IMG/VR virus record: IMGVR_UViG_3300033412_000014
Location: 1 to 60,274 of that record
DNA length: 60,274 bases
Direction: 5' to 3' (one strand)
Source: a virus
Taxonomy: Duplodnaviria; Caudoviricetes
Position numbers and translations under genes: made by a program. The first letter of the stretch is position 1. Each line of letters opens with the position of its first letter. The notes under the pieces were generated by a model that did not search any database, was not told where the DNA came from, and worked only from the letters and a program-made list of their open reading frames with translations. Of this stretch, positions 372 through 27,319 are shown one piece after another.

Positions 372-680
372 TTTGAAGACTTGAAGAATTTGAAGCGATA
401 ATTCTGCTCAGACTCCCCCGCGCGCGTCGCGCGTACAAGCGTATACGTAACTACGTACTACAAGTCTTCAAATCTTCAATTTTAGTATACGAACAGCGTT
501 CTACGATATCAAATGCAAGATCGACAGGTGTAAGCGTCGACATTTCGCCGTCTTCATTCGTCTTCAACGAAACCGCCCAACCTTTCAAGATCTAGTTTCA
601 CCATCCGCGATCTTGGCCCGAAGGCTACAAGATGTAACCTTCTTGATGATCTTCACTGCCCTAGAGCTGCATCTTCATCC
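372..680. repeat. Candidate replication origin: AT-rich region with repeated TGAAG/TCTTCA motifs and a 12-bp inverted repeat (372-383 / 461-472)
   Basis: Three TTGAAG copies at 373-395 followed by at least six inverted TCTTCA copies; low GC; immediately downstream of the primase-helicase gene. Confidence 0.55.
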
Positions 681-3164: not shown

Positions 3165-3231
3165 CAGGTAGCCTCGTTCAGTTTGAAGTCGAACCACCCA
3201 GCGGATCAGCGCCCGCTGGGTGGCTTCGTAT

Positions 3232-7659: not shown

Positions 7660-8471
7660 ATGGCCGTGAGGCCTACCGGAACGTGTTGCGTCAGGTTCAC
7701 GAGCAGGGTGAGGTGCGTTCGCCTCGCGGGTTGAAGACCTTCGACATCGGGTACGCAACGATCGAGCTGATGAGCCCGTACAACGCGCTCGCCGTCGGCC
7801 TGGGTCGGAAGCTGTCGAAGCGCGTCGCGGCCGCGGAGGCGATCCAGCTGATCGGTGGCTTCGCCGATCCCCAGCTCCTCCTCCAGGCGTCACCGAACTT
7901 TGCCCGGTATATCGAACCGTCGGGAGCATTCTGGGGAGCGTACGGGCGACGGATAGCCTTCGGTAACCAGCTACCGTCGGTCGTCCGCAAGCTCCAAGCG
8001 GACCCTGAGACCCGCCAGGCGATCGTGACCCTCTGGGACCCACAGCACGACAACGACCCGGGCCACAAGGACTACCCGTGCACGCTCGCACTCGGGTTCT
8101 CCCTCCAGCGGGGCAAGCTCGAGCTGGACGTCACCATGCGCTCCAACGACGTGTGGCGTGGTCTGCCGTACGACATTTTCCAGTTCACGCAGCTTCAACT
8201 GACCGTCGCGAACGTCCTTCAGCTGCAGCCCGGGCGGTACCGTCATCACACGTACTCGCTCCACTTGTACGCCGACGATCTCGATGACGCGGTGGAGTGC
8301 TACGAGAACGACGAGGACCTCGTGCCTACCTTCCTTCCCACTGGCCTTGGCCAGATCGGTGACACGATCAATGAAGTGATGAAGCAGGCGAGGCGACTTG
8401 TGGACGTCCCGTGGGGGAACTACAGCGACTCGGAGAGGTGGTACTGGGATGCGCTCCACCCGACCCAGTGA
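7635..8471 (+). CDS. Thymidylate-synthase-superfamily enzyme, probable dCMP hydroxymethylase or methylase
   Basis: YGRRI, DPETRQA, catalytic YPC, MRSNDVWRGLPYD with Asp (8172-8174) at the base-specificity position, SLHLY. Confidence 0.85.
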   Translation: MATFFKCVDGREAYRNVLRQVHEQGEVRSPRGLKTFDIGYATIELMSPYNALAVGLGRKLSKRVAAAEAIQLIGGFADPQLLLQASPNFARYIEPSGAFWGAYGRRIAFGNQLPSVVRKLQADPETRQAIVTLWDPQHDNDPGHKDYPCTLALGFSLQRGKLELDVTMRSNDVWRGLPYDIFQFTQLQLTVANVLQLQPGRYRHHTYSLHLYADDLDDAVECYENDEDLVPTFLPTGLGQIGDTINEVMKQARRLVDVPWGNYSDSERWYWDALHPTQ

Positions 8472-8982
8472 CGACGAACTGTTCTCTCGCGTCGCTAAGA
8501 TGATGGCGACGCGCAGTCTATGCGACCGTGACCGTGTCGGCGCGGTGATCGTCGACACCCAGCTTCGGATCGTCGCCACGGGTCGCAACGGTCCACCCGC
8601 TGGGTTTCCTCACGAGGAGCAGACGTGCAGCACGTGGTGTCGTCGCGCGATCAACGGTCATCCACTCAGCTCCGACTACCGTGACTGCCCGTCACTTCAC
8701 GCCGAGGTCAACGCGCTTCTCACCAGTGACCGCAGCCGTCACGAGGGTGGTACTATCTACATCACCAGCGACCCGTGCTGGTCGTGTGGCAAGATGATCG
8801 CGAACTCCGGTCTGTCGACCGTGGTCGTGATGTCCAGTTCGCAGAAGGCTGCGGAACGCAACGCGAGCGCGACCTACACGTTCATGGAGTCGTTTGGCGT
8901 CGACGTGGTGTTTCACGAGGAGAAGGAGAAGGACGATGGAGGAAACGAAGAAGCAGCCGCGAGGCACTACGACCTGGCCTGA
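8449..8982 (+). CDS. dCMP deaminase
   Basis: RSLC, VGAVIV, ATGRNG, HAEVNA and PCWSC zinc motifs. Confidence 0.92.
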   Translation: MRSTRPSDDELFSRVAKMMATRSLCDRDRVGAVIVDTQLRIVATGRNGPPAGFPHEEQTCSTWCRRAINGHPLSSDYRDCPSLHAEVNALLTSDRSRHEGGTIYITSDPCWSCGKMIANSGLSTVVVMSSSQKAAERNASATYTFMESFGVDVVFHEEKEKDDGGNEEAAARHYDLA

Positions 8983-9055: not shown

Positions 9056-9159
9056 GACGTGGTGATTGGAACGTCATCCTCATTTACGTAGGTCTCTTGA
9101 TCTTCTTGGTTGTGCTCTGGGCCGTACTGATCTGGGGTGGCTGGGTTGTCATTGGATGA
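9052..9159 (+). CDS. 35-aa hydrophobic peptide
   Basis: GTGA overlap with the previous ORF; VILIYVGLLIFLVVLWAVLIWGG. Confidence 0.4.
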   Translation: MRRGDWNVILIYVGLLIFLVVLWAVLIWGGWVVIG

Positions 9160-11041
9160 TGTTGAGCTCCACCTGATCGAGTCACTGGATGACGTCGCGT
9201 CGTTCACCCGGTGGCTCGGTCAGGTGCGAAACGGTCCTAAGCTCGCGTTCGACACGGAGACGACGGGGCTGAGCCTGGAGAAGGATCACGTTCGACTCTG
9301 TCAGATCGGTGACTCCGTACACGGCTGGGCGTTCTCGTGGGAACGCTGGTCGGGCATCATGGCCGACGTCGTGAAGACGTACGAGGGAACCCTCGTCGGA
9401 CACAACGCTCCGTTCGACTGGGGCTTCATGAAGAAGGCCGGAGTCGAGCTGCCACGGCGTCGCATTCGTGACACACGCCCACAGTGTCACATCATTGACC
9501 CGACGTTCTCGACCGCGCTGAAGAACAACGCGGTGCGGTACGTGGACCCGCGTGCGAAGAACTCGCAGGAGGACTTCGCCGCCACCGGCTGGACGTGGTC
9601 CACGGTGCCCATCGACTACGAACCCTACTGGTCCTACGGCGCGCTCGACCCCGTGCTGACGAACCAGCTCGACGACTACACGTGGCCGAGGATTCAGGGA
9701 ACACCCTCAGAGACGGCGTTCAACATCGAGAACTCCGTCCAGTGGGTTACCTACGACATGGAACGCTACGGTGTCCACATCGACGTGCCGTACGTTCAAG
9801 AGAGCTACGACCGGTTCACCCAGCACTGCGAGACGATCAAAGAGTGGTGTATCCGGAACTACAACGTCAACCCAGGACGCAACGCTCAGGTGATCGCGAG
9901 GCTACACGATGACGGGGTCGAGTTCAGCAAGGCCACCAAGGGCGGTTCCGTTTCACTGGACGCTGAGGTCTTGGCTGGAATCGATCATCCACTCGCGCGG
10001 CAGGTGCTCATCCGCCGTCGCTTGGAGAAGCTGGCCTCCACCTACCTCAAACACTACCTCACCGAGACTGACGAGAACGACCTTCTCCATCCGTCCATCA
10101 ACACTCTGGGCGCACGGACGTCTCGTATGTCAATGTCCAACCCGAACTTCCAGAACCTTCCGCGTGTCAGCGAGACCAATCCAGCGGCGACGGTGATCCG
10201 GAACTGTGTCTCTGCACGTGAGAATCACACACAGGTGTTCTGTGACTTCTCCCAGATCGAGATGCGGATCCTCGCGTGGCTCGCGCAGGACGAGAACATG
10301 ATCGCGGCGTTCAGGAGTGACGGCGACTTCTTTGTCAACCTCGCGCAGCAGGTGTACTCCGACCCGACGATCGACAAGGAACACCCGCTTCGGTCACGCA
10401 TCAAGAACTTCGGCTACGCGAAGATCTACGGTGCGGGTCTCGCTAAGATGGCGTGGACGGCCGGTATCGACATCGAGACCGTGCGATCGAACATGCTCCT
10501 CTTCGACGGCACGTTCCCCGGTGTTCGTCAGTATCAAGAACACACCTTCAACCTTGCGATCCAGCGAAAGCATCTCGAAGGTGTCCCGTACGCCGACTGC
10601 CCACTGTCCGGTCGTCGACAGCACGCCGAGCCGGGCAAGGAGTACGCACTCGTCAATTATGTGATCCAAGGTGCTGCAGCATCTCTCTTTAAGATGAAGC
10701 TGCTGGAGCTGGATCAGGCCGGTCTCACCCCGTGGATGATGCTCGTCGTTCACGATGAGGTCATCCTCGACGTGCCGAACGAGCACGTGGAGGACGTGGT
10801 CCATACCCTACACGCGGTGATGAACGATGATAAGATCATCGCTCCGGTGCCGGTCGAGGCAGAGATCTCGTTCGGTGCACGGTGGGGTCAGAAGATGAAG
10901 TGGAATCGAGACAGGTGGTTGAGTGGTGACTGGCGTGAACAAGCGGCCATTGGCGGTAATCGGGGTGGATCCGGGCAAGGCAACCGGCCTGACGCTGTAC
11001 TACAACCGGGCGCTCATCGCCAAGAACTCACTGCCGGCTAA
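9137..11041 (+). CDS. polA: Family A DNA polymerase with 3'-5' exonuclease
   Basis: AFDTETTG, HNAPFD and YGALD exonuclease motifs; PNFQNLP, DFSQIEMR, R..IK.F.YAKIYG and VHDEV polymerase motifs. Confidence 0.96.
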   Translation: MAGLSLDDVELHLIESLDDVASFTRWLGQVRNGPKLAFDTETTGLSLEKDHVRLCQIGDSVHGWAFSWERWSGIMADVVKTYEGTLVGHNAPFDWGFMKKAGVELPRRRIRDTRPQCHIIDPTFSTALKNNAVRYVDPRAKNSQEDFAATGWTWSTVPIDYEPYWSYGALDPVLTNQLDDYTWPRIQGTPSETAFNIENSVQWVTYDMERYGVHIDVPYVQESYDRFTQHCETIKEWCIRNYNVNPGRNAQVIARLHDDGVEFSKATKGGSVSLDAEVLAGIDHPLARQVLIRRRLEKLASTYLKHYLTETDENDLLHPSINTLGARTSRMSMSNPNFQNLPRVSETNPAATVIRNCVSARENHTQVFCDFSQIEMRILAWLAQDENMIAAFRSDGDFFVNLAQQVYSDPTIDKEHPLRSRIKNFGYAKIYGAGLAKMAWTAGIDIETVRSNMLLFDGTFPGVRQYQEHTFNLAIQRKHLEGVPYADCPLSGRRQHAEPGKEYALVNYVIQGAAASLFKMKLLELDQAGLTPWMMLVVHDEVILDVPNEHVEDVVHTLHAVMNDDKIIAPVPVEAEISFGARWGQKMKWNRDRWLSGDWREQAAIGGNRGGSGQGNRPDAVLQPGAHRQELTAG

Positions 11042-11399
11042 CGACGCGCCTCGCGAGGTTTCCCGCTGGATCGTCATCGCGCGTGAGCACCTGGAAGATC
11101 CACAGATCATCATCGGTGTGGAGCGTTACCAGACCGGTGGCAACACGGTGAAGAAGACGCGACAGGCCGACCCGGTCGAGCTGCTCGGTGCATGCCGACT
11201 GATCGCACGAGGTGACTCAGCGATCACCGTTGTCGTCTCCAACGCCTCCGATGCGAAAAAGATCGGGAGTCCTACCACGCTCAAGCGCATCGGCTGGTGG
11301 ACACCTGGACACGATCATATCAACGATGCGGCATCGCAAGTTCTTCGCGTTCTGGCACTGACGAGACCTGAAGAGTTCGCAGACGTCATCGGTTTGTGA
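10923..11399 (+). CDS. RuvC-like Holliday junction resolvase
   Basis: IGVDPGKATG, IGVERY and HINDA motifs; exact start uncertain (10923-10935). Confidence 0.8.
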   Translation: MVTGVNKRPLAVIGVDPGKATGLTLYYNRALIAKNSLPANDAPREVSRWIVIAREHLEDPQIIIGVERYQTGGNTVKKTRQADPVELLGACRLIARGDSAITVVVSNASDAKKIGSPTTLKRIGWWTPGHDHINDAASQVLRVLALTRPEEFADVIGL

Positions 11400-11441
11400 T
11401 AGGATAAACACGCAAGCCTGGGTAAACAGGGAGAGGACAGG

Positions 11442-13226
11442 ATGGCATACGCCGAGTACAACCCCACCCGTAACCGGATCGATGTGACGACCCGGTACGA
11501 GGAGAAGGAACTCATCAAGGCGATTCCCGGGTCGAAGTACCACGGTGAAGAGAAGATCTGGTCGGTTCCCGCCACGTTCGTCGCGTGCGTTCAACTACGT
11601 GGCCTCTTCAAGGATGAGCTGCACATCAGCCCACGACTCAACTCTTGGGCAACGCTTGAGCGTGTCGACCGCATCGACCAGGCGATGGCTCTTCGCACGC
11701 GGCTCGAACCTGAGACGTGGATCAACAAGCTGCTCTACCCGTTCCAAGAGGCCGGTCAGGACTTCCTCGGTGTCGCAGGTTCGGCACTTCTCGGTGATGA
11801 GATGGGCACGGGCAAGACGATCCAGCTACTTGCCACACTCAAGGACGAGGGCTACCCCGAGGTTGGGATGCTGCCCGCGCTCGTGATCTGCCCGAACTCG
11901 ACGAAGCATAACTGGGCTGACGAGGCCGCAAAGTGGTTTCCTGAGGCGAAGTCGTACGTGATCTCCGGTGGTGTGGTCCAGCGGCGAAAGCTCTTCAACC
12001 AGGCCGGTGACGACGCACTCGTGATCATCAACATCGAGGCGGTTCGCAACCACTCGCGTCTCGCGGGTTACGGGTCCATCCACCTCACCGATGCTGAGAG
12101 ACAGCCGAAGGAGCTCAACGAGATCCCGTTCCGTTCGGTCACCTTCGATGAGGCGCACCGGATGAAGGACCCGAAGTCGAAGCAGACCCGCGCTGCGTGG
12201 GCTGTCGGTCACGGTCCAACGGTGAGAAACCGGTTCGCGCTGACGGGTACACCGATCGTCAATGACCCGTCGGACCTCTGGTCCATTCTTCACTTCCTCG
12301 CTCCTGAGGAGTTCCCGACACGGTCGAAGTTCATCGACCGCTACTGCCTCCAAGCGTGGAACTCGTACGGCGGACTGAGTGTGATCGGTGTCCAGCCGGA
12401 GACCCGTGACGAGTTCCAGAAGATCATCGGCCCACGGTTTCGTCGGGTGACGAAGGACGAGGTGTTGACCCAGCTTCCGCGTAAGCAGCGGCAGCTCGTC
12501 AAGGTGCAAATGACGCCAAAGCAGGCGAAGGCCTACGGTGAGATGGAGTCACAGCTCGCGACCCGCGTCGACGGCGGTGTGATCGTTGCCGCGTCGAACC
12601 TCACGGCGCAGATTCGCCTCCTACAGTTCGCTGGATCGATGTGTGATGTTGCACCCGACGGCACGGTCACTCCCGTCGATCCGTCACCTAAGGTTGACGC
12701 ACTGCTGGACATCATCGACGCGGCGCAGGGTAAGCCGATCGTCGCGTGCGCCGTCCAGCGTAAGCTCATCGAGCTCGCCGCTAAGCGACTGGACAAAGAG
12801 AAGATCCGGTACGGTCTCATCACCGGTGCGGTCGACGAGTGGACACGGAAGCAGAACCTGAAGAAGTTCCAAGATGGTGAACTACCCGTCCTGCTCTTCA
12901 CCATTCAGGCAGGTGGCACCGGTCTCAACATGACCGCCGCCGACACCATCGTGTTCATCCAGCGTGACTGGTCGATGGTGAACAACCGGCAGGCCGAGGA
13001 CCGTGTTCACCGCATCGGCTCCGAGGTGCACGAGTCGATCAACGTCATCGATCTCGTCACCGAGGGCACCGTGGAAGAGACGGTCTTGACACGCTACCTG
13101 GAGAAGGTACACCGTCTGGATCAGATCACCCAGGACCGTGCGCGAGCCAAGGCAAACGGCCTGACGGTCACCGAGCTCGACGAGCTGGAGTCCTTCATCA
13201 TGAACGCACACCTGGGGGAAATGTGA
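11442..13226 (+). CDS. SNF2-family DNA helicase
   Basis: DEMGTGKT, DEAH, LTGTP, GGTGLNM and QAEDRVHRIG. Confidence 0.95.
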   Translation: MAYAEYNPTRNRIDVTTRYEEKELIKAIPGSKYHGEEKIWSVPATFVACVQLRGLFKDELHISPRLNSWATLERVDRIDQAMALRTRLEPETWINKLLYPFQEAGQDFLGVAGSALLGDEMGTGKTIQLLATLKDEGYPEVGMLPALVICPNSTKHNWADEAAKWFPEAKSYVISGGVVQRRKLFNQAGDDALVIINIEAVRNHSRLAGYGSIHLTDAERQPKELNEIPFRSVTFDEAHRMKDPKSKQTRAAWAVGHGPTVRNRFALTGTPIVNDPSDLWSILHFLAPEEFPTRSKFIDRYCLQAWNSYGGLSVIGVQPETRDEFQKIIGPRFRRVTKDEVLTQLPRKQRQLVKVQMTPKQAKAYGEMESQLATRVDGGVIVAASNLTAQIRLLQFAGSMCDVAPDGTVTPVDPSPKVDALLDIIDAAQGKPIVACAVQRKLIELAAKRLDKEKIRYGLITGAVDEWTRKQNLKKFQDGELPVLLFTIQAGGTGLNMTAADTIVFIQRDWSMVNNRQAEDRVHRIGSEVHESINVIDLVTEGTVEETVLTRYLEKVHRLDQITQDRARAKANGLTVTELDELESFIMNAHLGEM

Positions 13227-14233
13227 CCGTCACGATCCGTCGCATCTCCAACTCGGAGGTGCAGACCTTCAAGCGATGCCGTCGGCAGTGGTGGCTCGCG
13301 TGGCATCGCGGACTTCGTCCCACGCGACCGTCCGTCATGGGTGCGTTGCGGATCGGTGAGCGGATCCACGACGCTCTCGCTACCTACTACATTCCGGGTC
13401 TCGGTCCAGATCCACGGGAACGACTGGAAGTCCTCCTGGAGGAGGACCAGAGGTTCCTGAGCGCCAACAACGACGTGTCTCCTGAGGACCGGAAGCAGTT
13501 CAACTCGGAGGCCGACCTTCAGCGCATCATGCTCGAGGGTTACATGCAGTGGATCACTGAGACGGGTGCGGATCAGGACTTCATCATCATCGAGTCTGAG
13601 CGGTATGTGGAAGCAGCGTTCTTCCGGATCGGCGACGTTCAGGTCGTCATCATCGGTCGACTGGACGTACTCGTCGAGGACGCGTGGTCCAAGCAGCTCG
13701 CGTTCATCGATCACAAGACCACCGGTTCGATCATCGAGTCACTCAAGGGCATCAAGCTCAACCCACAGATGCGGATGTACCGGCTCATCCTACAACTCGC
13801 CGAAAAACGTGATGTGTCTCTTGCCGTCTACTCGATGCTTCGCAAGGTGAAGCGGACTGTGAAGGCAAATCCGCCGTTCTTCCACCGTGAGACGATCATA
13901 CACAATCACATCGAGACCACAACGTTCTCCGAGCAGTTGACGGGCGTCATTCACGACATCATCGAGACGGAGCATCATCTCAGTGACGTCTACACGCATC
14001 CTCGCACGGTGCATAACCGTAACGTCTACCCGACGCCTGGTGCACACTGCCGGTGGTGCCCGTTCGAGCGTGAGTGTTTGATGATGGACGACGGCTCCCG
14101 TGCCGAGGACTCACTCGCTTCACGGTTCGTCGTTGGCGAACCACTGCACTACTACGGAAGGGACGATCTTGCCCGAGTTCAACCCGGATCACGTCCTGTC
14201 GACCCTCATCCACGCCGGATCGAAGCAGGGTAA
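13223..14233 (+). CDS. Cas4/RecB-like PD-(D/E)XK exonuclease
   Basis: SNSEVQTFKRC, GRLD, IDHKT, QMRMY and CRWCPFEREC. Confidence 0.88.
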   Translation: MTVTIRRISNSEVQTFKRCRRQWWLAWHRGLRPTRPSVMGALRIGERIHDALATYYIPGLGPDPRERLEVLLEEDQRFLSANNDVSPEDRKQFNSEADLQRIMLEGYMQWITETGADQDFIIIESERYVEAAFFRIGDVQVVIIGRLDVLVEDAWSKQLAFIDHKTTGSIIESLKGIKLNPQMRMYRLILQLAEKRDVSLAVYSMLRKVKRTVKANPPFFHRETIIHNHIETTTFSEQLTGVIHDIIETEHHLSDVYTHPRTVHNRNVYPTPGAHCRWCPFERECLMMDDGSRAEDSLASRFVVGEPLHYYGRDDLARVQPGSRPVDPHPRRIEAG

Positions 14234-14936
14234 GACCACCCTCGCGTCGACGTCACCGCCTCCGCATCTCGCACTCGATGCGGAAGGTGGCTGGAAGTTC
14301 ATCGATGAGGCTGGTTACAAGACCGGTAAGAAGCTCCGGCGCATCCGCTGGAACCCTGCCACCGAGCCGATACCGCAACACGACGGCACCTGGGATCTCT
14401 GCAGTGTGACCGTCCGGAACTGGGCGACGATGACCCTCGTCTACCAGCACCTCACCCAGCGACCACACCAGTTCCGTTCGATCACCTGGGACTCGATCAC
14501 CGAGGTCCAGCGAACCTGCCGCGACGCTCTCAAGGGCACCGAGGCGATGCAGCTGCAGGACTGGGGCGTGCTGCTAATTCAGATGGACGATATGATTCGT
14601 AAGTTCCGGAACCTCACCTTGGATCCGAGCAACACGGTGCAGGTCGTCAACTTCATCGCTGAGACGAAGATGCGGGACGGTAAGTGGCGTCCCTACATGC
14701 AGGGACAGATCACCGACGCTCTACCGTATATGGTCGACGTCTGTGGGTACCTCACTACCCAGTGGGGTATGGATGACGCGGGTCAACCGACCGTGCGGCA
14801 GCCGGTCCTCAACATCTCACCAAGCGACTACTGGGAGGCGGGCGAACGTGTTCAGGGCCGCCTCCCCAACTCGATCCTTCTCCCCAACATCACCAACATC
14901 CTCAACTCCGTCTATCCCAACGCCGTCACCAACTAA
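14169..14936 (+). CDS. Sak4-like AAA recombination ATPase
   Basis: HAGSKQGKTT, DAEGG, WDSIT and DVCGYL; lies between exonuclease and SSB; TTG start inferred. Confidence 0.8.
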   Translation: MPEFNPDHVLSTLIHAGSKQGKTTLASTSPPPHLALDAEGGWKFIDEAGYKTGKKLRRIRWNPATEPIPQHDGTWDLCSVTVRNWATMTLVYQHLTQRPHQFRSITWDSITEVQRTCRDALKGTEAMQLQDWGVLLIQMDDMIRKFRNLTLDPSNTVQVVNFIAETKMRDGKWRPYMQGQITDALPYMVDVCGYLTTQWGMDDAGQPTVRQPVLNISPSDYWEAGERVQGRLPNSILLPNITNILNSVYPNAVTN

Positions 14937-14955
14937 CACACATCAGGAGTAACCA

Positions 14956-15558
14956 GTGGCTGACATGAACTTCGGTAAGATGCGTCAGGACGCGATGACC
15001 GTCCTGACGGGAGACTTCGTCGTTCGCTGCATCGAGGCCAAGCCGACGAAGAACTCGAACGGCGACGACATGATCAAGACCAAGCTGCAGATCATCGCCG
15101 GCCCGTACACCGGACGGAACCTGCCCAACAACTTCAACATCATCCCGAGCAACGTCCCGGCGCTGCAGATGTTCTTCAGCCACATGAACTGCTTCGGCCT
15201 CGACGAGGCGTATTTCGCCACGCTGCCGAACGGCGAGGCCGGTGTGTACAAGATCGCTCAGGACCTCGTCGGTCGCGTCGTCGAGGTGAAGGTCGGATCG
15301 CGGAAGTGGCAGAATGTGGATCGTGAGAACATCGAGTCCATCAAGCCGGCGCCGGCCGGTCTCAGTGGCGTGGGGCAGCCCGTCGCGTTCGCCCAGGCGC
15401 TCCCCACCGCGCTTCCGACGGCGCTTCCGACGGCGCAGCTCGTCGCGCCGCAGGTGACCGGATCGGCCACGGTGGCCCTGCCGCTCGACATCGGTTCCGG
15501 GCCGGAGAACACGGCCGCGGCGACCGGTGGTGAGCCGGAGCCGGAACCCGCGTTCTAG
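14956..15558 (+). CDS. Single-stranded DNA-binding protein (DUF669-like)
   Basis: OB-fold pattern (GDFVVRC, GPYTGR, LVGRVVEVKV), low-complexity linker, acidic/aromatic tail EPEPAF. Confidence 0.75.
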   Translation: MADMNFGKMRQDAMTVLTGDFVVRCIEAKPTKNSNGDDMIKTKLQIIAGPYTGRNLPNNFNIIPSNVPALQMFFSHMNCFGLDEAYFATLPNGEAGVYKIAQDLVGRVVEVKVGSRKWQNVDRENIESIKPAPAGLSGVGQPVAFAQALPTALPTALPTAQLVAPQVTGSATVALPLDIGSGPENTAAATGGEPEPEPAF

Positions 15559-15623: not shown

Positions 15624-17015
15624 ATGATGGGACGTAAGATCCTGTATGGAAAAATAGGACGATCGATGCCGCTGACACTCGCGAAGTGCGGCACCCTCGG
15701 TGGTGACATCGAGATGACCGCGACACTCGTTCGACTCGCCAACGCATATCCCGACGACGAGATCATCCTCATCGGTCGGAACACTGGTGAGAACCCGCAG
15801 GACGTCGGTCTTCCTGCGAACATCACGAACCCGTGGACCGAGTGGAGTCCACGACTGCGGACGTACCTGAACGAGCAAGGACTCAACCACCCGAACCTGA
15901 CGGTGGAAGAACACATCAAGGCGCTCAGCTACATCATGCACCTAACCGTCGACACGTTCCTCAGCGCCGACGCGATGGTCATGTGGGTCGGTCAGCACGG
16001 CACCTCGAACACACCGATCCCGAAGATCGGCGACCGGTCCATCCTGACGAAGCCGCAGGATGCGTTCACCTACTACTCCGGCTTCCTCCTCCGCGGCATC
16101 AACCACTGGCGTGACGTTGATCCCATCCAGCGGGAGCCCATCTTCCTCAACGCCGATCCGCGCAACTACCTCAAGATGCGCGACATGAAGTGGCCACTCC
16201 AGCATCCGGTGCTGACCCAATACCGGTTCGGTCACCGGATCAAGCACGAGCGCTACGGTGACCCGAACAAGCCCGAGTTCATGTCGTGGACCGAGGACCA
16301 ACGGATCAGCTACCGCACGCGTGAGAACCTCGGCTACACCGATGACGGTGACGTCTGGACCGCGTGGGTCGACAACACGTACTCTCGTCTGGAACTCAAC
16401 GCGCTACTGCCCGGCACGCCGTCGGGTGATCTGCTGACGTTCGACGGTGAGTGGGCTGTTCGGGAGCCGTTCGGCGTGGTGATCAACGAGGCACGTGCGA
16501 TCGGTGTTCCGGAGCGACTTGGCCGCCTGCGTGCGATGCACGACTGGATCATGCCGTTGCGACCCGCGTTCATCCACGGGACGTGGTCCGACAAGGCGAT
16601 GACGTCACTTCGCGAGAAGTGGGGCGCGGGACTGTGCATCGAGCCGCTACCGTGGTCGCAGTACGCGGCGAAGATGCACCGCGTTCGTACGACCCTGACG
16701 ACGCCGTCCAGCGGGAGTGGCTGGGCCACGACCAAGCCGTGGGAGGCGTTCGGTCTCGGTGTGGTGTGCTTCTTCCACCCCGAGTACGACACGCAGAACA
16801 ACATCCTACGAGACGCACCCACGTTCCTCACGAACTGGCTTCGTGTGAGGACGCCGGCTGAGCTTCGCGACAAGGTCATTCACCTCAACACGACTGCCGG
16901 TCGCAAGGACTGGGAGCTCATCGTCAACGCACAGCACGATCACTTCCAGTACAACGTGCTCGGCACCCCCACCTTCATGAAGATGATCGACGACCGTCTG
17001 AACGGAGCCAAGTAG
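15624..17015 (+). CDS. GT-B glycosyltransferase resembling T4 DNA beta-glucosyltransferase
   Basis: C-terminal TKPWEA...PEYDT...V...AELRDKV..L...QHD parallels T4 BGT WET...EEFDT...V..RAELIDRV..L...QHD (recalled); ADPR parallels BGT TDIR. Confidence 0.72.
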   Translation: MMGRKILYGKIGRSMPLTLAKCGTLGGDIEMTATLVRLANAYPDDEIILIGRNTGENPQDVGLPANITNPWTEWSPRLRTYLNEQGLNHPNLTVEEHIKALSYIMHLTVDTFLSADAMVMWVGQHGTSNTPIPKIGDRSILTKPQDAFTYYSGFLLRGINHWRDVDPIQREPIFLNADPRNYLKMRDMKWPLQHPVLTQYRFGHRIKHERYGDPNKPEFMSWTEDQRISYRTRENLGYTDDGDVWTAWVDNTYSRLELNALLPGTPSGDLLTFDGEWAVREPFGVVINEARAIGVPERLGRLRAMHDWIMPLRPAFIHGTWSDKAMTSLREKWGAGLCIEPLPWSQYAAKMHRVRTTLTTPSSGSGWATTKPWEAFGLGVVCFFHPEYDTQNNILRDAPTFLTNWLRVRTPAELRDKVIHLNTTAGRKDWELIVNAQHDHFQYNVLGTPTFMKMIDDRLNGAK

Positions 17016-18083
17016 TTGAAGACAACAATCATTCTTCCGTCCATCCGCGTACCGAGTAACCTCACGAGCTGGGTGACGCAGCTCGAACCCGAAACCGACG
17101 AGATCATCGTCGCCGGCAACGAGGCGTCACCGCACGCGGCCATCACCGAGTTCCTCGGCAGCCTGACGAACCAGCACGGTGTGCGAACCACGTACCTCGG
17201 CCCGCGTGATCCTCGCGTCACCGAGCGTGCGATCTACTCGTTCATCGCACCGAATCACACCGCGCGACGAAACTTCGCGCTGCTCCACGCGCTGGAGAAC
17301 CGACCCGACGTCCTCGTCACCATAGACGACGACAACTACCCATACAAGGCCGACTGGCTGAAGGGCGTGAAGGCGCTCCTCGACCCGGAGCAGCCGAATC
17401 ACCGCATGATCATCAGCTCGGAGACGGGTTGGTGGAACGCAGGTCGTCTCTGCACGCCGTCGGTGATCCACCGTGGGTTCCCCGTGTCCGCCTGGACCGA
17501 GCGTGACACCGGGCAGGCTGCCGGGACGGGTGCAACACCGATCGGTGTCGTCGCGAGCTTGTGGCTGGATGACCCCGACATCAACGCCGTCGAGCGGATG
17601 CTGCACAACCCGCAGGTACTGAGCGTGAACTCATCCGCCACGCTCGCACCGGGAACGTGGTGCCCGTTCGACTCACAGTCCACCAGCGTGCACGGCGTGA
17701 TCGCGGACATGATGTTCATGTGGCCCGACATGGGTCGATACGACGACATCTGGTCCTCGTACCTGATGCGCGCGGTGATGGACGTCATCGGCTGGTACGT
17801 CACGTACGGCACACCGGCCGTCACCCAGGACCGCAACCCGCACACCCTCGTCAAGGACCTGCGGGACGAGCTGTTCGGCTACGAGTACACCGAGGAGTTC
17901 ACGGACTTCCTCCGTGGTCTCGTTCAGCGGGCGCCGACCGACTTCACGCACGTGTACGAGGTGTATCGCTGGTTCATGTTCGAGACGGCGAGCAACTACA
18001 AGCGCCTGCCGGGTCTCACACGCGAGTCGTTCTACGCGTGGCTGATCGACGTCGACAACGTCCGCAAGCAGACGGGACTGTGA
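17016..18083 (+). CDS. GT75/RGP (UDP-arabinopyranose mutase)/STELLO-like GT-A protein
   Basis: RRNFALL, TIDDDN, HRGFP, LWLDDPDINA, PFDSQST and GRYDDIW match RGP/STELLO signature blocks. Confidence 0.78.
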   Translation: MKTTIILPSIRVPSNLTSWVTQLEPETDEIIVAGNEASPHAAITEFLGSLTNQHGVRTTYLGPRDPRVTERAIYSFIAPNHTARRNFALLHALENRPDVLVTIDDDNYPYKADWLKGVKALLDPEQPNHRMIISSETGWWNAGRLCTPSVIHRGFPVSAWTERDTGQAAGTGATPIGVVASLWLDDPDINAVERMLHNPQVLSVNSSATLAPGTWCPFDSQSTSVHGVIADMMFMWPDMGRYDDIWSSYLMRAVMDVIGWYVTYGTPAVTQDRNPHTLVKDLRDELFGYEYTEEFTDFLRGLVQRAPTDFTHVYEVYRWFMFETASNYKRLPGLTRESFYAWLIDVDNVRKQTGL

Positions 18084-18634
18084 TGGACCGACTCGAAGAG
18101 ATCTTCACTCGGCAGCAGGTGCTGCAGGAGAAGACGTATCGTGCGCCGTTGGGATTTATGGCGCAAAGTCCCGACGTGCAAGCTGAGTACGTGCGAACCA
18201 GTGTTCTCGCGGCGACTGCTGAACTCCACGAAGCACTCAACGAGGTTGGTTGGAAGCCGTGGGCAACGGAGCGCTTCTACAACACGGACAACGTGATCTC
18301 GGAGTGCGTGGACGCCTTTCACTTCGTCATCAACATCATGCTTGCTTCAGGTGTCTCAGCGAAAGACCTCGCCGATCGATTCCATGAGAAGTACGTGGAA
18401 AAGAACGAGCGAAACGCAACGCGTCAGAAAGAGGGCTACGACGGCGTCTCGTCGAAGTGTCCTCACTGTTCGCGGGCCTTGGACGACGTCGGTGTCAACC
18501 AGGGTCGCATCCTCGACGAACTCGTCTTCGTCTGTGGCGGGTGTAACAAGGGACTCGACGCGAAGATGATCATCGGCAAGGAGAGCGTAGAGCGGATCGT
18601 GCGGATCAGCAAGATCCTCGATCAGACGGCCTAG
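18083..18634 (+). CDS. Dimeric all-alpha dUTPase/dCTPase (T4 gp56-like) with C-terminal zinc ribbon
   Basis: ELHEAL..VGWKPW, ECVDAFHF and Y..KN..N..RQ..GY; CPHC...CGGC tail; TGATG coupling. Confidence 0.85.
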   Translation: MDRLEEIFTRQQVLQEKTYRAPLGFMAQSPDVQAEYVRTSVLAATAELHEALNEVGWKPWATERFYNTDNVISECVDAFHFVINIMLASGVSAKDLADRFHEKYVEKNERNATRQKEGYDGVSSKCPHCSRALDDVGVNQGRILDELVFVCGGCNKGLDAKMIIGKESVERIVRISKILDQTA

Positions 18635-18646
18635 TACGGTTCAGCC

Positions 18647-20188
18647 ATGGATGCGATCGACGTTCTGGGGTTCGCCGGCGGTTTCACGCTTGGCATGACG
18701 CAGGCGGGTTTCAGGCTCGTCGGTAAGCGGGAGATGAAGGGCGGCTTTGGCGTCGCGAACTGCGAGGCCAACCGCCATCTCCTGGGTCACGACTGGAAGG
18801 CCGAGGCGGGCGATCCAGCGACGTGGTCCGTTCCAGTGGGAGGCGCACCTGTCGTCTTTGGTAACCCGCCGTGCTCTGGTTTCTCAGTGATGAGCTCGAA
18901 GGAGTTTCGTGGTGCCGACTCGAAGATCAACCACTGCATGTGGGCATTCGCTGAGTATGTGGCAAGAGTTCGTCCTGTGGTGGCGGTCTTCGAGTCCGTT
19001 CCGCAAGCGTTCCGATCACAAGACGGTCACGTACTCATGCAGCAGCTGCGGACGCTTGTTGAAGAGCGGACTGGCTTACTGTACACACTGCACCATGTAC
19101 TGCACAATGCTTACTCGGTTGGCGGTGCTGCGATACGCCCAAGGTATTTCTGGGTGATCTCCCAGGTGCCGTTCGGGATCGAGCGGCCGGTGATGCCGAC
19201 CTACCCGCTCTTCAAGGACGTCATCTGGGACCTGGGGATGTCACCCCAGACGTGGTCGCAGCAGCGGTACAGGCTACCTACAGCAACCGACTGGTTGAAC
19301 CCGCGAATCTCCCCTACGGGGACGTTCGATGGGCACGTAGCGGTCGACAACCCGCTGACGAACCGGCTGCGAGACCTGCTGTACGGTGTCGAGTGGCAGC
19401 CGGGCCAGCACGTCGGTCAAGTCGCTAAGACGTACTACGAGACGCACGGCACGTTGCCCACGTCGTGGCAGTCCACCCAGGAGAAGCTCGTCAAGAACAA
19501 CTTCTTCATGGGATTCACGACGCCCGTCCGCTGGAAGGCCGATCAAGCGGCACGGGTGATCACCGGTGGTGGACCCGTGATGGTCGTTCACCCGTGGCTT
19601 CCTCGAACACTGACACACCGTGAGATCGCGCGGATCCTCGGGTTCCCCGATGACTGGCTGATCGAACCACTGAAGGGCGTCCCCGGCCTGGGTATGACGT
19701 GGGGCAAGGGGATCACCGTCGACTGCGGTCGCTGGATCGGCGAGTGGATCCAGCGGGCCATCAACGGTGAACCCGGCACGTACACGGGTGAGATTATCGG
19801 TGACCGGGAAACTGTCATCGACGTTACTCACGATTGGAAACATCACGCAACCTGGTACAGTAACACGGTCGCACAAAAACATAAGACCCCTTCCCCCGTT
19901 AGAAGGAGAATCATGACCGAGCCCGAGGGTGGCGTCGTCGCCACCGAGACCGGCCCCACGCGTGCCGAGAAGATCGCTGCCCGTTCCGCCCAGGTGTACG
20001 AGCTGCTCGCCACCGGCGCCAAGACCCGTGATGAGGTCGCCACCGGCGTGGAGCCGAACCTCACCGTCGCCGAGGCCTACCTCGCGCTGGACCGCCTGCG
20101 CAAGCAGGGCACGGTCGCGTCCGAGCGGCGCGACGGCAAGAGCGTCTGGTTCCGTCCGGACGTCGTCGAGCCGGCGCCGGCCGAGTAA
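18647..20188 (+). CDS. C5-cytosine DNA methyltransferase-fold enzyme (atypical motifs I, VI and X) with in-frame C-terminal winged HTH
   Basis: GNPPCSGFS, FESV, RPRYF and RTLTHREIARILGFPDDW; motif I LGFAGG; motif X WGKGI. Confidence 0.85.
   Translation: MDAIDVLGFAGGFTLGMTQAGFRLVGKREMKGGFGVANCEANRHLLGHDWKAEAGDPATWSVPVGGAPVVFGNPPCSGFSVMSSKEFRGADSKINHCMWAFAEYVARVRPVVAVFESVPQAFRSQDGHVLMQQLRTLVEERTGLLYTLHHVLHNAYSVGGAAIRPRYFWVISQVPFGIERPVMPTYPLFKDVIWDLGMSPQTWSQQRYRLPTATDWLNPRISPTGTFDGHVAVDNPLTNRLRDLLYGVEWQPGQHVGQVAKTYYETHGTLPTSWQSTQEKLVKNNFFMGFTTPVRWKADQAARVITGGGPVMVVHPWLPRTLTHREIARILGFPDDWLIEPLKGVPGLGMTWGKGITVDCGRWIGEWIQRAINGEPGTYTGEIIGDRETVIDVTHDWKHHATWYSNTVAQKHKTPSPVRRRIMTEPEGGVVATETGPTRAEKIAARSAQVYELLATGAKTRDEVATGVEPNLTVAEAYLALDRLRKQGTVASERRDGKSVWFRPDVVEPAPAE
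19913..20188 (+). CDS. Winged-HTH protein, probably also translated from an internal start
   Basis: AGAAGGAG RBS at 19901, in-frame ATG 19913, TGGTACAGT -10 at 19853-19861; VYELLA..TRDEVA....AYLALDRLRKQG.V. Confidence 0.6.
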   Translation: MTEPEGGVVATETGPTRAEKIAARSAQVYELLATGAKTRDEVATGVEPNLTVAEAYLALDRLRKQGTVASERRDGKSVWFRPDVVEPAPAE

Positions 20189-24802: not shown

Positions 24803-25408
24803 TCACCACCGGTCCGGCCGTCCCGAGGTGTTCCCGGAGTCGTGGTGCCAGAGCCACGTCTTGGCGACGAGATGCGAGATCTTCGCACCGGCGGCGAGGC
24901 AACCCAGCGTGAACTGCCAGTCCTCACCCCATCGCTGACCGTCGATCGTGTCCTCGCCCTCGGGTGGGATGAACCGCACCTGCTTGGCGAGCTCCGTCCG
25001 AACCAGCGTCGTCACGGTGGTCTGCCGCGGGTTGGCGTCGTCCCACGGGTTGAGGTAGTGTCCAGGTGGGAAGACCGGGTCGTTCTCGATGATCACACCG
25101 TCGGGTCGTACGACCTTGAACCACGAGTAGGCGTAGTCGGCGCCGGTCTGAAGTGCGTGATCGAGCAGGAGTTCCAGGTGGAGTGGCAGGAACTCGTCGT
25201 CGTCATCGAGGAACGCGACCCAGGGGGTGGTGACACCGTCCAGTGCGCGCTGCCGTGTCGGGCCGGCACCTTCCCTGTGAAGGTCTAGCGCGATCGAGAT
25301 ACCCGCGGCGGCGTGTGTCTGGTTGAGCACAGAGTACACCGCGCGTCGCAGGAGGCGAGCGCGCGGCGAGATCGACGGTATGACGACCGTCACGTCGTTG
25401 GAGGTCAT
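24803..25408 (-). CDS. GT2-family glycosyltransferase
   Basis: VTVVIPS, WVAFLDDDD and GEDW. Confidence 0.88.
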   Translation of the reverse strand: MTSNDVTVVIPSISPRARLLRRAVYSVLNQTHAAAGISIALDLHREGAGPTRQRALDGVTTPWVAFLDDDDEFLPLHLELLLDHALQTGADYAYSWFKVVRPDGVIIENDPVFPPGHYLNPWDDANPRQTTVTTLVRTELAKQVRFIPPEGEDTIDGQRWGEDWQFTLGCLAAGAKISHLVAKTWLWHHDSGNTSGRPDRW

Positions 25409-25417
25409 GCAGCTACT

Positions 25418-26083
25418 CTACCACGGTGCTCTACCCCACTTCTTGACGAACGTCTCACGGTCACGGCCGGCCTGCTCGGCCAGCTCACCGACGGTTGTGC
25501 TGTCTGGGTAGAGGTGTGCGAAGCCCTCCCACGCACCGCCGACGTGAACGACACCACCGAGATCGCGGCACCGCCAGTCGAGGTCGTTATCACCGTACCA
25601 CCAGCCAAAGTCCTCGTCGGCGAGCAGCTTCAGTGATCCGCGAAGTGCGAACGCGAACCCGAGCATGCGAAGTGTGTTTCCTCGCATGTCGACCTTGAAC
25701 GCGGTGGTGCGCATACCCGGTGCAGGGCAGGCAGCCGCTGCTTCCTCCCGCTGGATGTTCACGTCGAGCCGCTGAACGAAGCCCGGAGGGACACGCAGAT
25801 CGTCGTTCAGTACGGCGACGGTGAACTCATCACTAGGAGACATCACCTCCTGGTAGTGGTATGCGGCACGGAGGCCGGTGTTCCACCACCGCTGGATGTT
25901 GATGGGTTTCTCACGGTCCTGCAGGACGACCACGTTCGGGTGCGAGATCGTGATCCGGTCATAACCCGTGTCGACGATGATCACACGAACGCCACCGTAG
26001 TCGACGAGATCGTGTATGAGATCGGCGAGTTCCACCGGTCGGTGACCGGACGGGATGACGGCGTAAAGGTTGCGGTCCGTCAT
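25418..26083 (-). CDS. GT-A glycosyltransferase
   Basis: AVIPS, IIVDTG, WWNTG, VLNDD and WWYGDNDL. Confidence 0.8.
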   Translation of the reverse strand: MTDRNLYAVIPSGHRPVELADLIHDLVDYGGVRVIIVDTGYDRITISHPNVVVLQDREKPINIQRWWNTGLRAAYHYQEVMSPSDEFTVAVLNDDLRVPPGFVQRLDVNIQREEAAAACPAPGMRTTAFKVDMRGNTLRMLGFAFALRGSLKLLADEDFGWWYGDNDLDWRCRDLGGVVHVGGAWEGFAHLYPDSTTVGELAEQAGRDRETFVKKWGRAPW

Positions 26084-26634
26084 CGCGGCATCATCGCCAG
26101 CGCATACGCGTCACCAGGCGGGTAGGCGTATTCGACGTGAACGTCCTTGAAGTGCGTCTCTAGCTCGAACCGAAGGTGGCCCTCCGGCACGTTCTCGTAC
26201 CACTCGCCGTCCGCCGGGGACGGTGCTCCCGTCGCGCCGTGCTCCGGTCGATTAATCGATGCGCAGGTGACGATGAAGTATCCGCGCGGAGTTAGCACGT
26301 CACGTGCCGTCTGGATGATCGCTCGCCAGTTCTCGAGGTGTTCGAACACCTCGGTGCAGAGCACGACGTCGAACTTCGCACCGTCTTCAGGACGCCAGGT
26401 GGTTGCATCTGCAATCACATACTGGTTCCAGTGGTGATTGAACCGCTCAGGAGGCAGGTTGTCGGTGAAGGGTTCCGCCTCATCGATGACGGTCCAGTCG
26501 GCGTTGGGCAGCTCGGGTCGCGCGGAGCCGTTCCAGTACGCACCGCCGATGTCGAGCGCTCGCCAGGGCTCCTCCGTGTTGATGCCGCTTCGCTGGATCA
26601 TACGGCGAACGGCCAGGTACGCTTCAGCATGCAT
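26080..26634 (-). CDS. Class I SAM-dependent methyltransferase (leaderless)
   Basis: ALDIGG, FDVVLCTEVFEH and L.PRG; TACTAT -10 6 nt before ATG 26634. Confidence 0.85.
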   Translation of the reverse strand: MHAEAYLAVRRMIQRSGINTEEPWRALDIGGAYWNGSARPELPNADWTVIDEAEPFTDNLPPERFNHHWNQYVIADATTWRPEDGAKFDVVLCTEVFEHLENWRAIIQTARDVLTPRGYFIVTCASINRPEHGATGAPSPADGEWYENVPEGHLRFELETHFKDVHVEYAYPPGDAYALAMMPR

Positions 26635-26650
26635 GAGCTGATAGTACCAC

Positions 26651-27319
26651 TTAGTACATCTCGAGAAGGAGTGAGACCTCGTTGTTGGCACTTCCGTTGG
26701 ATGAAACGGCACCGCTGCCACTGGATCTCACCGCGAGTACACCGATCGAGATCTCTCCAGCACCGATCCCTGTGACCGTCTTGACGAGTGTCTCGTTCAT
26801 CGCACGTCCTGCGATGTCGATGTTGACCTGGTGCGAGGAGAACAGTGTTCCCGTGCTGTCGAGGGTGCTGCCACTCATCCAGCGGCACCGTAGCTGGACG
26901 ATGTCGCCTACGATGCCCGACTGCACGTGACCAACCCACGTGAGCTTGTAGCGAGCGTCATCAACCGCGGTGAAGGTGATCTGATCAAGGAGTGTCTCAA
27001 TCGTGGTGAATGTGCCAACCGTTGAGGTGCGAGTGACTTCATCGATAAAACCCGTGTTGACATCGGCGTACGTACCAATGATGTAGTTGCCCTGTGGGGG
27101 AACAACCATCACCATTACACGCTGGTTGATTCGCACGGGACCGATCAAGCTCATCGCTCGCGATACACCTTGGTCATCACCGTCGACGATCAACTGAACG
27201 TTGGCGATCGACGCGGCGTTGACCACAGTGGCGGGTAGCAGCCGCCAGACGAGACCTGCACGTTGTGCGTTCTCGATCACCGCGGAGAGACCTGCTACGT
27301 GTACGTCAACACCGCTCAT
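26651..27319 (-). CDS. Minor tail protein
   Basis: OB-like N-terminus and beta-rich C-terminus; last gene of the tail module. Confidence 0.6.
   Translation of the reverse strand: MSGVDVHVAGLSAVIENAQRAGLVWRLLPATVVNAASIANVQLIVDGDDQGVSRAMSLIGPVRINQRVMVMVVPPQGNYIIGTYADVNTGFIDEVTRTSTVGTFTTIETLLDQITFTAVDDARYKLTWVGHVQSGIVGDIVQLRCRWMSGSTLDSTGTLFSSHQVNIDIAGRAMNETLVKTVTGIGAGEISIGVLAVRSSGSGAVSSNGSANNEVSLLLEMY

Follow-up and report, generated by a model that had tools for sequence, protein, structure and literature searches.

A phage-restricted clade of the C5-cytosine-methyltransferase fold with lysine at the motif X asparagine, encoded beside a putative hydroxymethylcytosine pathway

Introduction

A gene at positions 18647-20188 of the IMG/VR virus record IMGVR_UViG_3300033412_000014 raises the question of which reaction is catalyzed by a protein that has the fold of a DNA C5-cytosine methyltransferase (C5-MTase), but carries a Lys in place of the motif X Asn and is encoded among genes for a putative 5-hydroxymethylcytosine (hmC) pathway. 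The record, which was analysed over its whole length and is called the window here, comprises 60,274 bases (61% G+C), with an estimated completeness of 97%. The initial annotation of this gene proposed either a natural carboxymethyltransferase, or another transferase that does not use S-adenosylmethionine (SAM), or an enzyme acting on hmC. In this work we show that the Lys is a property of a whole clade, and we argue from the gene context that carboxymethylation is improbable. A SAM-independent reaction on hmC is tentatively favoured.

The protein and its fold

The gene had been thought to end at 19760, but the open reading frame (ORF) list extends it to 20188. The ORF and its parts are as follows:

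18647-20188, plus strand: the whole ORF (513 aa), a C5-MTase-fold enzyme of the Lys-at-motif-X clade (PF00145, AlphaFold and Foldseek)
18647-19846, plus strand: the catalytic and target-recognition part (aa 1-400), common to the family members of about 398 aa
19961-20155, plus strand: a C-terminal winged-helix-like domain (aa 439-503), placed by secondary structure and model confidence, with a weak ArsR-type match (2kko, E 0.056)

The PF00145 profile covers aa 2-368 of the protein with E 2.7e-18 and 66.9 bits, its cut-off being 22, and the NCBIfam dcm profile (TIGR00675) reaches 41.9 bits, below its cut-off of 100.65 bits. Among proteins of solved structure, M.HaeIII is the closest in sequence (E 6.9e-13). 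An AlphaFold (AF2) model derived from 47 relatives has a predicted local distance difference test score (pLDDT) of 91.6, with values above 90 throughout aa 1-400, and the nearest solved folds detected by Foldseek are those of M.HaeIII, ZMET2, DNMT1/MET1 and M.HhaI. The target-recognition insert sits between motifs VIII and IX, as in canonical C5-MTases. The winged-helix-like domain is connected to the main part by a disordered linker (aa 408-433) and is found in part of the clade only, many relatives being merely about 398 aa long; a MarR/TrmB winged helix-turn-helix (wHTH) was found in one relative, P0125.

The motifs and the position of Lys354

The fold, the order of motifs IV, VI, VIII, IX and X, the catalytic Cys, the Glu and the Arg-x-Arg are shared with canonical C5-MTases (M.HaeIII, M.HhaI and Dcm). 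The motifs were located as follows:

18665-18682, plus strand: motif I variant LGFAGG (aa 7-12), with Leu7 where canonical enzymes have Phe and Phe9 where they have the first Gly
18863-18886, plus strand: motif IV, NPPCSGFS, with the catalytic Cys76 (18872-18874) and Ser77 where canonical enzymes have Gln
18992-19000, plus strand: motif VI, ESV (in FESV; Glu116, Ser117), replacing ENV
19136-19144, plus strand: motif VIII, RxR (in AIRPRY; Arg164, Arg166), with Ala162 at the canonical Gln before it
19706-19708, plus strand: the Lys354 codon, AAG, in WGKGITV, at the motif X Asn position (N304 of M.HhaI in the published overlay with CmoX; R350 of SpCmoX, the CmoX enzyme of Synechococcus phage S-B43)

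Motif IX, RTLTHREIARILGFPDDW, is also present. The ORF translation and the alignments thus agree with the initial annotation, both in that the catalytic PPC, motif VIII and motif IX are intact and in that LGFAGG, ESV and WGKGI (AAG at 19706-19708) are found at the places given for them. LGFAGG does not conform to the FxGxGG pattern when compared with 30 canonical enzymes, and its gapless alignment to motif I is backed by the predicted boundaries of the preceding strand (residues 2-6) and of the following helix (from residue 12).

The proposal that the enzyme is unusual hung on the Lys being aligned with the motif X Asn, and this alignment was obtained in three different ways. In a HMMER alignment with maize ZMET2, 'mtwGKGitv' lies over 'iqvGNAvav', so that Lys354 is placed on the Asn. 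In a MAFFT alignment that included Escherichia coli Dcm ('QFGNSVVV') and S-B43 CmoX ('RVGRMVPP'), Lys354 falls on the Asn of the former and on Arg350 of the latter; the numbering of CmoX in this alignment (S95-P96-P97-C98, R350) agrees with the published one. In an L-INS-i alignment with 30 canonical actinobacterial C5-MTases, Lys354 stands in a column that is Asn in 30/30. The equivalence is therefore one of sequence alignment, together with secondary-structure agreement in a high-confidence model.

The Lys is conserved throughout a phage-restricted clade

In an exhaustive HMMER search, which gave 1341 hits, 178 clusters (50% identity) reached E<=1e-30, and ordinary methyltransferases made up the long remainder. 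The clade alignment holds 151 sequences, i.e., the best 150 representatives of these clusters plus P0001, which is the representative of the window's own cluster and differs from the window protein at one residue; the counts below refer to non-gap rows. For the canonical reference, PF00145 was searched in 301 Actinomycetota genomes and the 30 best matches were kept; as the top-scoring ones, they lean to the consensus. PF00145 was detected in 75/301 of these genomes, a tally that includes the unpublished G123, G303 and G053, from which none of the 30 reference sequences was taken.

The column of Lys354 is Lys in 137/144 clade rows and Arg in 3, and Asn in 30/30 canonical enzymes. Hence, the Lys is not a chance substitution, and the observation is stronger than the initial annotation could know, because it holds clade-wide. 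Two further positions behave likewise: Ser117 is kept in 135/142 rows, where canonical enzymes have the Asn of ENV (29/30), and Ser77 in 115/126, where the residue after the catalytic Cys is Gln in 26/30 canonical enzymes. The residues expected for catalysis are nearly invariant in the clade, namely Cys76 (126/127), Glu116 (141/142), Arg164 (142/146) and Arg166 (146/146). The residue that precedes PPC varies (N in 88 rows, T in 18, C in 12; the window protein has NPPC), and the Gln of QxRxR, present in 30/30 canonical enzymes, is often lost.

The gene belongs to a large subfamily of the C5-MTase fold that is restricted to phages. When two N-terminal peptide patterns of the clade were searched in 185,579 bacterial species genomes no relative was detected; the sensitivity of such patterns is limited, and absence from prophages is not proven by this search. 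A megablast search with the Lys-type gene against phage records gave no match. Clade members are annotated plainly as 'methyltransferase', and a literature search found no paper that describes the Lys-type clade; for SAM-independent or methyltransferase-like enzymes with hmC, it turned up no study of a phage enzyme.

Some members carry additional domains. Among the 20 longest, eight (P0166, P0195, P0219, P0231, P0143, P0155, P0267 and P0128) are fused to a separate class I SAM-methyltransferase domain of the Methyltransf_23, FkbM or FtsJ type, and in Actinomycetia phage DSL-LC01 a gene for such a protein lies directly upstream of the Lys-type gene (L003:8416-8928). One member (P0246) is fused to the helical domain of a 5-hydroxymethyldeoxyuridine DNA kinase (HMUDK). 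In P0259 (752 aa) an intein, with Hint, LAGLIDADG and splicing domains, is inserted at the catalytic PPC motif. Inteins typically occupy functionally critical sites.

The SAM-contacting positions are altered

A bulky residue is found at the first motif I Gly throughout the clade (Phe or Leu at position 9 in 117/124 rows; Gly in 30/30 canonical enzymes), and the position of the stacking Phe is unconstrained (position 7 is Q in 63 rows, H in 18, E in 10 and Y in 9; Phe in 26/30 canonical enzymes). In class I methyltransferases the end of strand 2, with the motif II acid, is the ribose-holding site. In 33 of about 124 clade representatives this acid is replaced by a non-acidic residue, whereas canonical enzymes have E, D or Q in 30/30, and in the 37 rows without Glu at this position the Lys is kept in 34; the relative of L074/G438 is an example of a member without this Glu. 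The motif III Asp position is also unconserved (D 30, P 27, E 13, A 11 rows). The adenosine contacts reported for SpCmoX are F25, E47, F48 and D69 (PMC12783734). None of these four is strongly conserved in the clade; the window protein keeps two of them, as Glu29 at the motif II position and Asp56 at the motif III position.

The other changes concern the side of the pocket that faces the base. Ser77, Ser117 and Lys354, which from the M.HhaI literature we take to line the interface between C5 and the cofactor, represent either smaller residues (Ser77, Ser117) or an added protonatable group (Lys354). In M.HhaI the solvent channel that leads to C5 runs along Gln82 and Asn304, and of these two positions the published overlay confirms that of Asn304. 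An Arg stands at the equivalent motif X position of DNMT3A, which is SAM-dependent, a point that weighs for continued use of SAM and for an ordinary methylase.

The clade thus differs from canonical C5-MTases in having Lys for the motif X Asn, ESV for ENV, PCS for PCQ, Phe for the first Gly of motif I and Leu or a variable residue for its Phe, in the partial loss of the motif II acid, in a score below the NCBIfam dcm cut-off, and in its constant association with a putative hmC pathway.

The gene is bound to a putative hmC pathway

The genes of the window that relate to nucleotide or DNA modification around the Lys-type gene are:

6709-7659, plus strand: a P-loop (dTMP-kinase-like) nucleotide kinase of 316 aa with an uncharacterised C-terminal half, preceding the thymidylate-synthase homologue
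7635-8471, plus strand: a thymidylate-synthase (TS) homologue (PF00303) with the active-site signature of T4 gp42 (dCMP hydroxymethylase)
8398-8982, plus strand: a dCMP deaminase adjoining the hydroxymethylase (family match 8467-8832)
15624-17015, plus strand: a GT-B glycosyltransferase of 463 aa without a Pfam match, with a fold nearest to T4 DNA beta-glucosyltransferase (BGT; AF2 pLDDT 80.9)
17016-18083, plus strand: a GT-A-like glycosyltransferase with weak RGP/STELLO similarity
18083-18634, plus strand: a MazG/dUTPase_2-type, gp56-like nucleotide pyrophosphatase, directly upstream of the Lys-type gene (PF08761, E 2.4e-14; phrog_18650)

The best solved relative of the TS homologue is the CMP hydroxymethylase MilA. 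At the positions equivalent to L143, H147, Q165, C168, D169 and N177 of ThyA the window protein has D, T, M, N, D and D, identical to T4 gp42, and this pattern (L143D, H147T, Q165M, C168N/S/Q, D169 kept and N177D) was found in 34/34 relatives examined. Asp at the position of ThyA N177 is the cytosine-specificity switch. The substitution D169N, absent from the window protein and from the 34 relatives, marks 5-hydroxy-dCMP synthases (PMC13326640).

The linkage was analysed in 37 related genomes, of which 22 are at least 90% complete, and in 84 loci that extend up to 10 kb to either side of the Lys-type gene. The TS homologue was present in 36/37 genomes, and in 22/22 of those at least 90% complete; in 38/39 related records the dCMP deaminase adjoins it. 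In each of the 70 loci with a tblastn match, a MazG homologue lies upstream of the Lys-type gene and is co-directional with it (median gap 124 bp); 70 is a lower bound, as the annotated MazG of Micrococcus phage Kurnik was missed by tblastn. The similarity of the MazG protein to the T4 gp56 dCTPase detected by BLASTP (E 3e-8) covers 46 aa only. This protein ends in a zinc-ribbon-like C-terminal tail (CxxC...CxxC). In the phages Kurnik and Sixama, MazG and the Lys-type gene are separated by an additional small ORF.

The glycosyltransferases are less constant. Homologues of the GT-B and GT-A-like enzymes occur in 55/84 and 34/84 loci, respectively, and one homologue of the latter (L024) matches RGP at E 9e-8. 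When the GT-B model was compared with solved structures by Foldseek, T4 BGT occupied ranks 1-6 (E 4e-8 to 1.2e-6; TM-score 0.54-0.64 on the target), and the T4 alpha-glucosyltransferase rank 26. The cassette between the SSB-like (single-stranded-DNA-binding) gene and MazG differs among relatives, while the Lys-type gene is constant; sugar epimerases, nucleotidyltransferases, UDP-galactopyranose mutase (Galf) and RGP-like transferases are found in it.

This gene content suggests that the phage carries the T4 set for glycosylated hmC, with one extra constant gene, and that its DNA would contain hmC. The gp42 signature, the gp56-like pyrophosphatase, the nucleotide kinase, the dCMP deaminase and the BGT-like fold are all likenesses to the T4 system (gp42, gp1, gp56, Cd and the alpha- and beta-glucosyltransferases). 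In T4, however, Dam is the only DNA methyltransferase annotated in the 20-kb stretch from gp56 to gp46, and that phage is not known to have a C5-MTase-fold gene anywhere, whereas in the present clade a constant gene of this fold comes right after the pyrophosphatase gene. C5-MTase-family genes are also found beside DNA glycosyltransferases in phage clusters that combine a methyltransferase with TET/5mYOX; those systems make hmC after replication, by methylation and then oxidation, whereas here, to judge from the genes, the TS homologue would supply it (PMC8256090; bioRxiv 10.1101/2023.12.21.572611). A Tet_JBP match was found in 0/39 records, in a search that had no positive control and carries little weight.

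Two candidates for additional roles were discarded. The 316-aa kinase is not a 5-hydroxymethylpyrimidine DNA kinase, since it has no similarity to the HMUDK-fused P0246 and PF18748 has no match in the window. The 212-aa class I methyltransferase at 26080-26718 (minus strand) is not a CmoA analogue, its matches being weak and of the UbiG/BioC type only; its similarity to the domains fused to clade members is merely generic, and its gene adjoins the tail genes, in a group with two GT2 genes.

Comparison with CmoX and the supply of carboxy-SAM

A natural DNA cytosine C5-carboxymethyltransferase, CmoX of phage S-B43, was published in December 2025 (PMC12783734; PDB 8YF3 cited there). This structure was not among the 45 PDB sequence matches of the window protein, nor among the Foldseek matches listed down to rank 50. 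As described there, its Arg350, at the position of N304 in M.HhaI, touches the carboxymethyl group, the R350N variant is dead, and carboxy-SAM is the sole donor accepted. Phage CmoA was reported in 4257 among 5615 CmoX contigs, and the amide ligase CmoY is frequent alongside CmoX, though not universal (PMC12783734). The basic motif X residue (Arg350 or Lys354), the Ser after the catalytic Cys, phage encoding and the setting in a hypermodification pathway are common to CmoX and the clade. In addition, SPPCSAFS of CmoX resembles the PPCS[AG]FS of the clade, where canonical enzymes have PCQ. The two differ in that CmoX has Arg and SPPC and keeps a canonical motif I, ENV and QxRxR, whereas the clade has Lys, NPPC in the window protein, and alterations in these motifs; the sequence identity of the window protein to CmoX is 21%. 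Furthermore, CmoX travels with CmoA and an asparagine-synthetase-like ligase, and neither was found with the clade.

The initial annotation had recognised no CmoA-like carboxy-SAM synthase in the window, and this was borne out, as the CmoA profile (TIGR00740) had no match there at E<=0.01. CmoA was likewise detected in 0/37 related phage genomes (0/38 with the window phage), and searches with E. coli CmoA, S-B43 CmoA and S-B43 CmoY (the last by tblastn) matched 0/84 loci. The genomes of Kurnik, Sixama and DSL-LC01, searched in full, contain no CmoA, and the cultured phages that do carry it (83 records) are listed under genera other than Gordonia. On the host side, 401 Actinomycetota genomes drawn from the whole phylum were searched; CmoA scored above its curated cut-off in one of them, and 13, including the unpublished G036, had a match at E<=1e-10. 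Since CmoA is missing from the phages and rare in Actinomycetota genomes, an enzyme of the clade would have no carboxy-SAM to use unless its host were unusual.

The engineered carboxymethyltransferases M.MpeI N374K and M.MedI N377K have the same Asn to Lys change at motif X as the clade, but they are single-site variants and otherwise canonical, whereas the clade has at least five further conserved pocket changes. The premise that a Lys at this position implies a donor other than that of the methyl group is weak, since M.MedI N377K still methylates >99% of its substrate with SAM (PMC12015181).

In S-B43 (L088:4391-7644) a pyrophosphatase gene lies two genes upstream of cmoA-cmoY-cmoX, which recalls the order of MazG before the methyltransferase-fold gene here; by tblastn this locus showed no similarity to the actinophage loci.

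Which reaction might be catalyzed

The explanation that we favour, tentatively and as possible rather than probable, is that of a SAM-independent enzyme that would use the intact Cys/Glu/Arg chemistry on hmC, or on a derivative of it, in phage DNA. According to it, Cys76, Glu116, Arg164/Arg166 and motif IX would have been retained for flipping of the cytosine and attack on C6, and the pocket where SAM and C5 meet would have been rebuilt, the motif X Asn being replaced by Lys354, the Gln after the catalytic Cys by Ser77, the Asn of ENV by Ser117 and the first motif I Gly by Phe9, so that the protein would no longer be a canonical enzyme with SAM as methyl donor. The target-recognition domain would select the sequence context, in which the phage's own hmC, or a compound derived from it, would undergo covalent catalysis at C6; the Lys would act as an acid/base, or bind the oxygen of the 5-CH2-O group or a phosphate. 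The 5-substituent would then be lost, or exchanged via an exocyclic methylene intermediate. This explanation is preferred because the catalytic residues are constrained while the interface is altered, because the gene is bound to the hmC pathway, and because there is a precedent, C5-MTases without SAM having been reported to take the hydroxymethyl group off hmC as formaldehyde (PMC11347137). The alternative offered in the initial annotation, i.e., another non-SAM transferase or an action on hmC, would hence be the best available explanation of the gp42-type co-occurrence, the eroded SAM contacts and the nearly invariant Cys, Glu and Arg. The broader claim, that this would be the first natural C5-MTase fold to give up SAM and would perform an obligatory hmC exchange or removal step in a widespread actinophage hypermodification, we regard as somewhat doubtful. 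To our knowledge, such removal or exchange has been seen only as an in vitro side reaction of ordinary methyltransferases.

Several points weigh against a SAM-independent action on hmC. Its main and serious rival is a divergent but ordinary SAM-dependent C5-MTase that would make motif-specific 5-methylcytosine on escaped cytosines, on host DNA, or on all cytosines if thymine were replaced via deamination of hm-dCMP. Both the chemistry and the hmC of the virion are read from genes, and the strict co-occurrence may derive in part from common descent of the whole replication-and-modification module. The always-adjacent dCMP deaminase opens a possible route from hm-dCMP to hm-dUMP, which would leave cytosines unmodified and available to a plain methylase. 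With Glu29 and Asp56 in place the window protein may bind SAM, and the canonical reference leans to the consensus. The intact catalytic motifs, the PF00145 score far over its cut-off, the annotation of the relatives and the full methylation by M.MedI N377K all fit an ordinary methylase too. What makes us consider this rival unlikely is that six positions near-invariant in canonical enzymes are altered and then conserved over about 150 clusters, and that the Lys persists even though roughly a quarter to a third of the members have lost the motif II acid; besides, the score falls short of the NCBIfam dcm cut-off, eight clade members have a second, separate SAM-methyltransferase domain, and the strict linkage to the hmC genes would be left unexplained. 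A carboxymethyltransferase of Lys type, using carboxy-SAM or another anionic SAM derivative to place a carboxymethyl-type group on C5, would account for the alignment of Lys354 with SpCmoX Arg350 and with the engineered N374K and N377K, and for the shared PPCS[AG]FS; Lys forms would have lain outside the CmoX survey, because it selected on SPPC plus Arg, and its main text does not discuss them (PMC12783734). In principle, the class I methyltransferase-fold domains on 8 of the 20 longest members could make a modified donor. The proposal is nevertheless largely refuted by context, that is, by the missing CmoA and CmoY in phages and loci, by the rarity of CmoA in Actinomycetota, and by the Arg, SPPC and canonical motifs of the natural enzyme; in hmC DNA, moreover, the C5 position would not be free. 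We therefore hold it to be highly improbable.

The same erosion of SAM positions with retention of the catalytic residues would also be expected of a SAM-free enzyme acting on unmodified cytosine, an activity that only an hmC phage could afford. Such an enzyme might be a finisher, hydroxymethylating residual cytosines of the phage with a one-carbon unit from a donor other than SAM. It might instead be directed against the host, with Lys354 protonating C5 and thereby promoting deamination or covalent trapping, reactions for which SAM-free C5-MTases are known. The obligate co-occurrence with a nucleotide-level hmC pathway fits completion or self-immunity, and the gene is constant while the decoration cassettes vary. 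However, the donor is hypothetical, a sequence-specific enzyme would be a poor general finisher or weapon, and the smaller Ser77 and Ser117 suit a C5-substituted base at least as well; the two versions, which are purely inferential, are taken jointly as quite unlikely. Finally, the degenerate SAM-contact residues and the C-terminal wHTH here and in some relatives would suit a former methyltransferase that is now catalytically idle and serves in DNA binding or regulation, e.g., as a reader of modified or unmodified cytosine aided by its winged helix. Catalysis is suggested instead by the Cys, the Glu and both Arg, which hardly vary across about 150 clusters, and by the intein at the PPC motif of P0259, and many members have no wHTH, so that this idle protein appears very unlikely. 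The clade is best described as a known kind of enzyme with a fair chance of new chemistry.

If the action on hmC without SAM were true, it would constitute a new enzymatic route to DNA hypermodification, and possibly a sequence-specific tool for rewriting hmC that would be of interest to epigenome chemistry. Whichever reaction applies, a basic residue at motif X alone does not mark carboxymethyltransferases, and searches for CmoX-like enzymes therefore need the CmoA context. The question is directly testable, because cultured members of the clade exist in Gordonia and Micrococcus phages.

The phage and its relatives

The terminase of the window is nearest to those of Streptomyces, Arthrobacter and Microbacterium phages (34-35% identity), and the same stretch is present in assembled contigs from soil, rhizosphere and groundwater metagenomes, with no RNA data set listed among its holders. 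From the terminase relatives and the hosts of the cultured relatives, an actinobacterial host is probable. The clade occurs in 19 phage records, 13 of them of Gordonia; cultured carriers include the Gordonia phages Sixama, GodonK and GMA2, with Gordonia terrae or G. malaquae as hosts, and Micrococcus phage Kurnik. The published literature on Micrococcus phage Kurnik, or on dCMP hydroxymethylase with actinophages, yielded nothing on the DNA modification of the cultured relatives, and the paper on Gordonia phage GMA2 lists, in the text under PMC4524720, 'putative methylase' and glycosyltransferase genes and no more.

Two further groups of genes were delimited in the window:

661-3197 (minus strand) and 9137-15558: the replication module, with a D5_N helicase-primase with Prim-Pol, a family A polymerase, a SNF2 helicase, a PD-(D/E)XK nuclease, an AAA_24 RecA-like protein and DUF669
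24803-26721, minus strand: two GT2-family glycosyltransferases and the 212-aa class I SAM methyltransferase, grouped at the end of the tail/structural block

The gene order of the replication module precedes the modification cassette in most relatives too. The group at 24803-26721 may represent a cassette for glycosylation of virion proteins rather than DNA-modification genes.

Two genomes among the relatives are of note. Genome G438 (loci L158/L159), although small (32.5 kb, 45% G+C, estimated complete), retains the common arrangement of the kinase, the gp42-type hydroxymethylase, the dCMP deaminase, MazG and the Lys-type gene, and has GT1, GT2 and cytidylyltransferase genes among its head genes. 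A DNA polymerase had no match among the 48 ORFs scanned in it, and incorporation of the modified nucleotide in this phage may fall to the polymerase of its host. Homologues of HMUDK and of the amino-acid:DNA transferase (ADDT) were found together in the cassette in 3/41 genomes. In the complete 88-kb genome G027 (L059:4925-9972) the glycosyltransferase cassette is replaced by five genes, which encode a myo-inositol-1-phosphate synthase, a HAD phosphatase, an ADDT homologue, a dual-specificity phosphatase and an FkbM methyltransferase. This genome also has an HMUDK homologue, although the TS homologue encoded there is of the gp42, or cytosine, type, and the set may specify an undescribed cytosine hypermodification.

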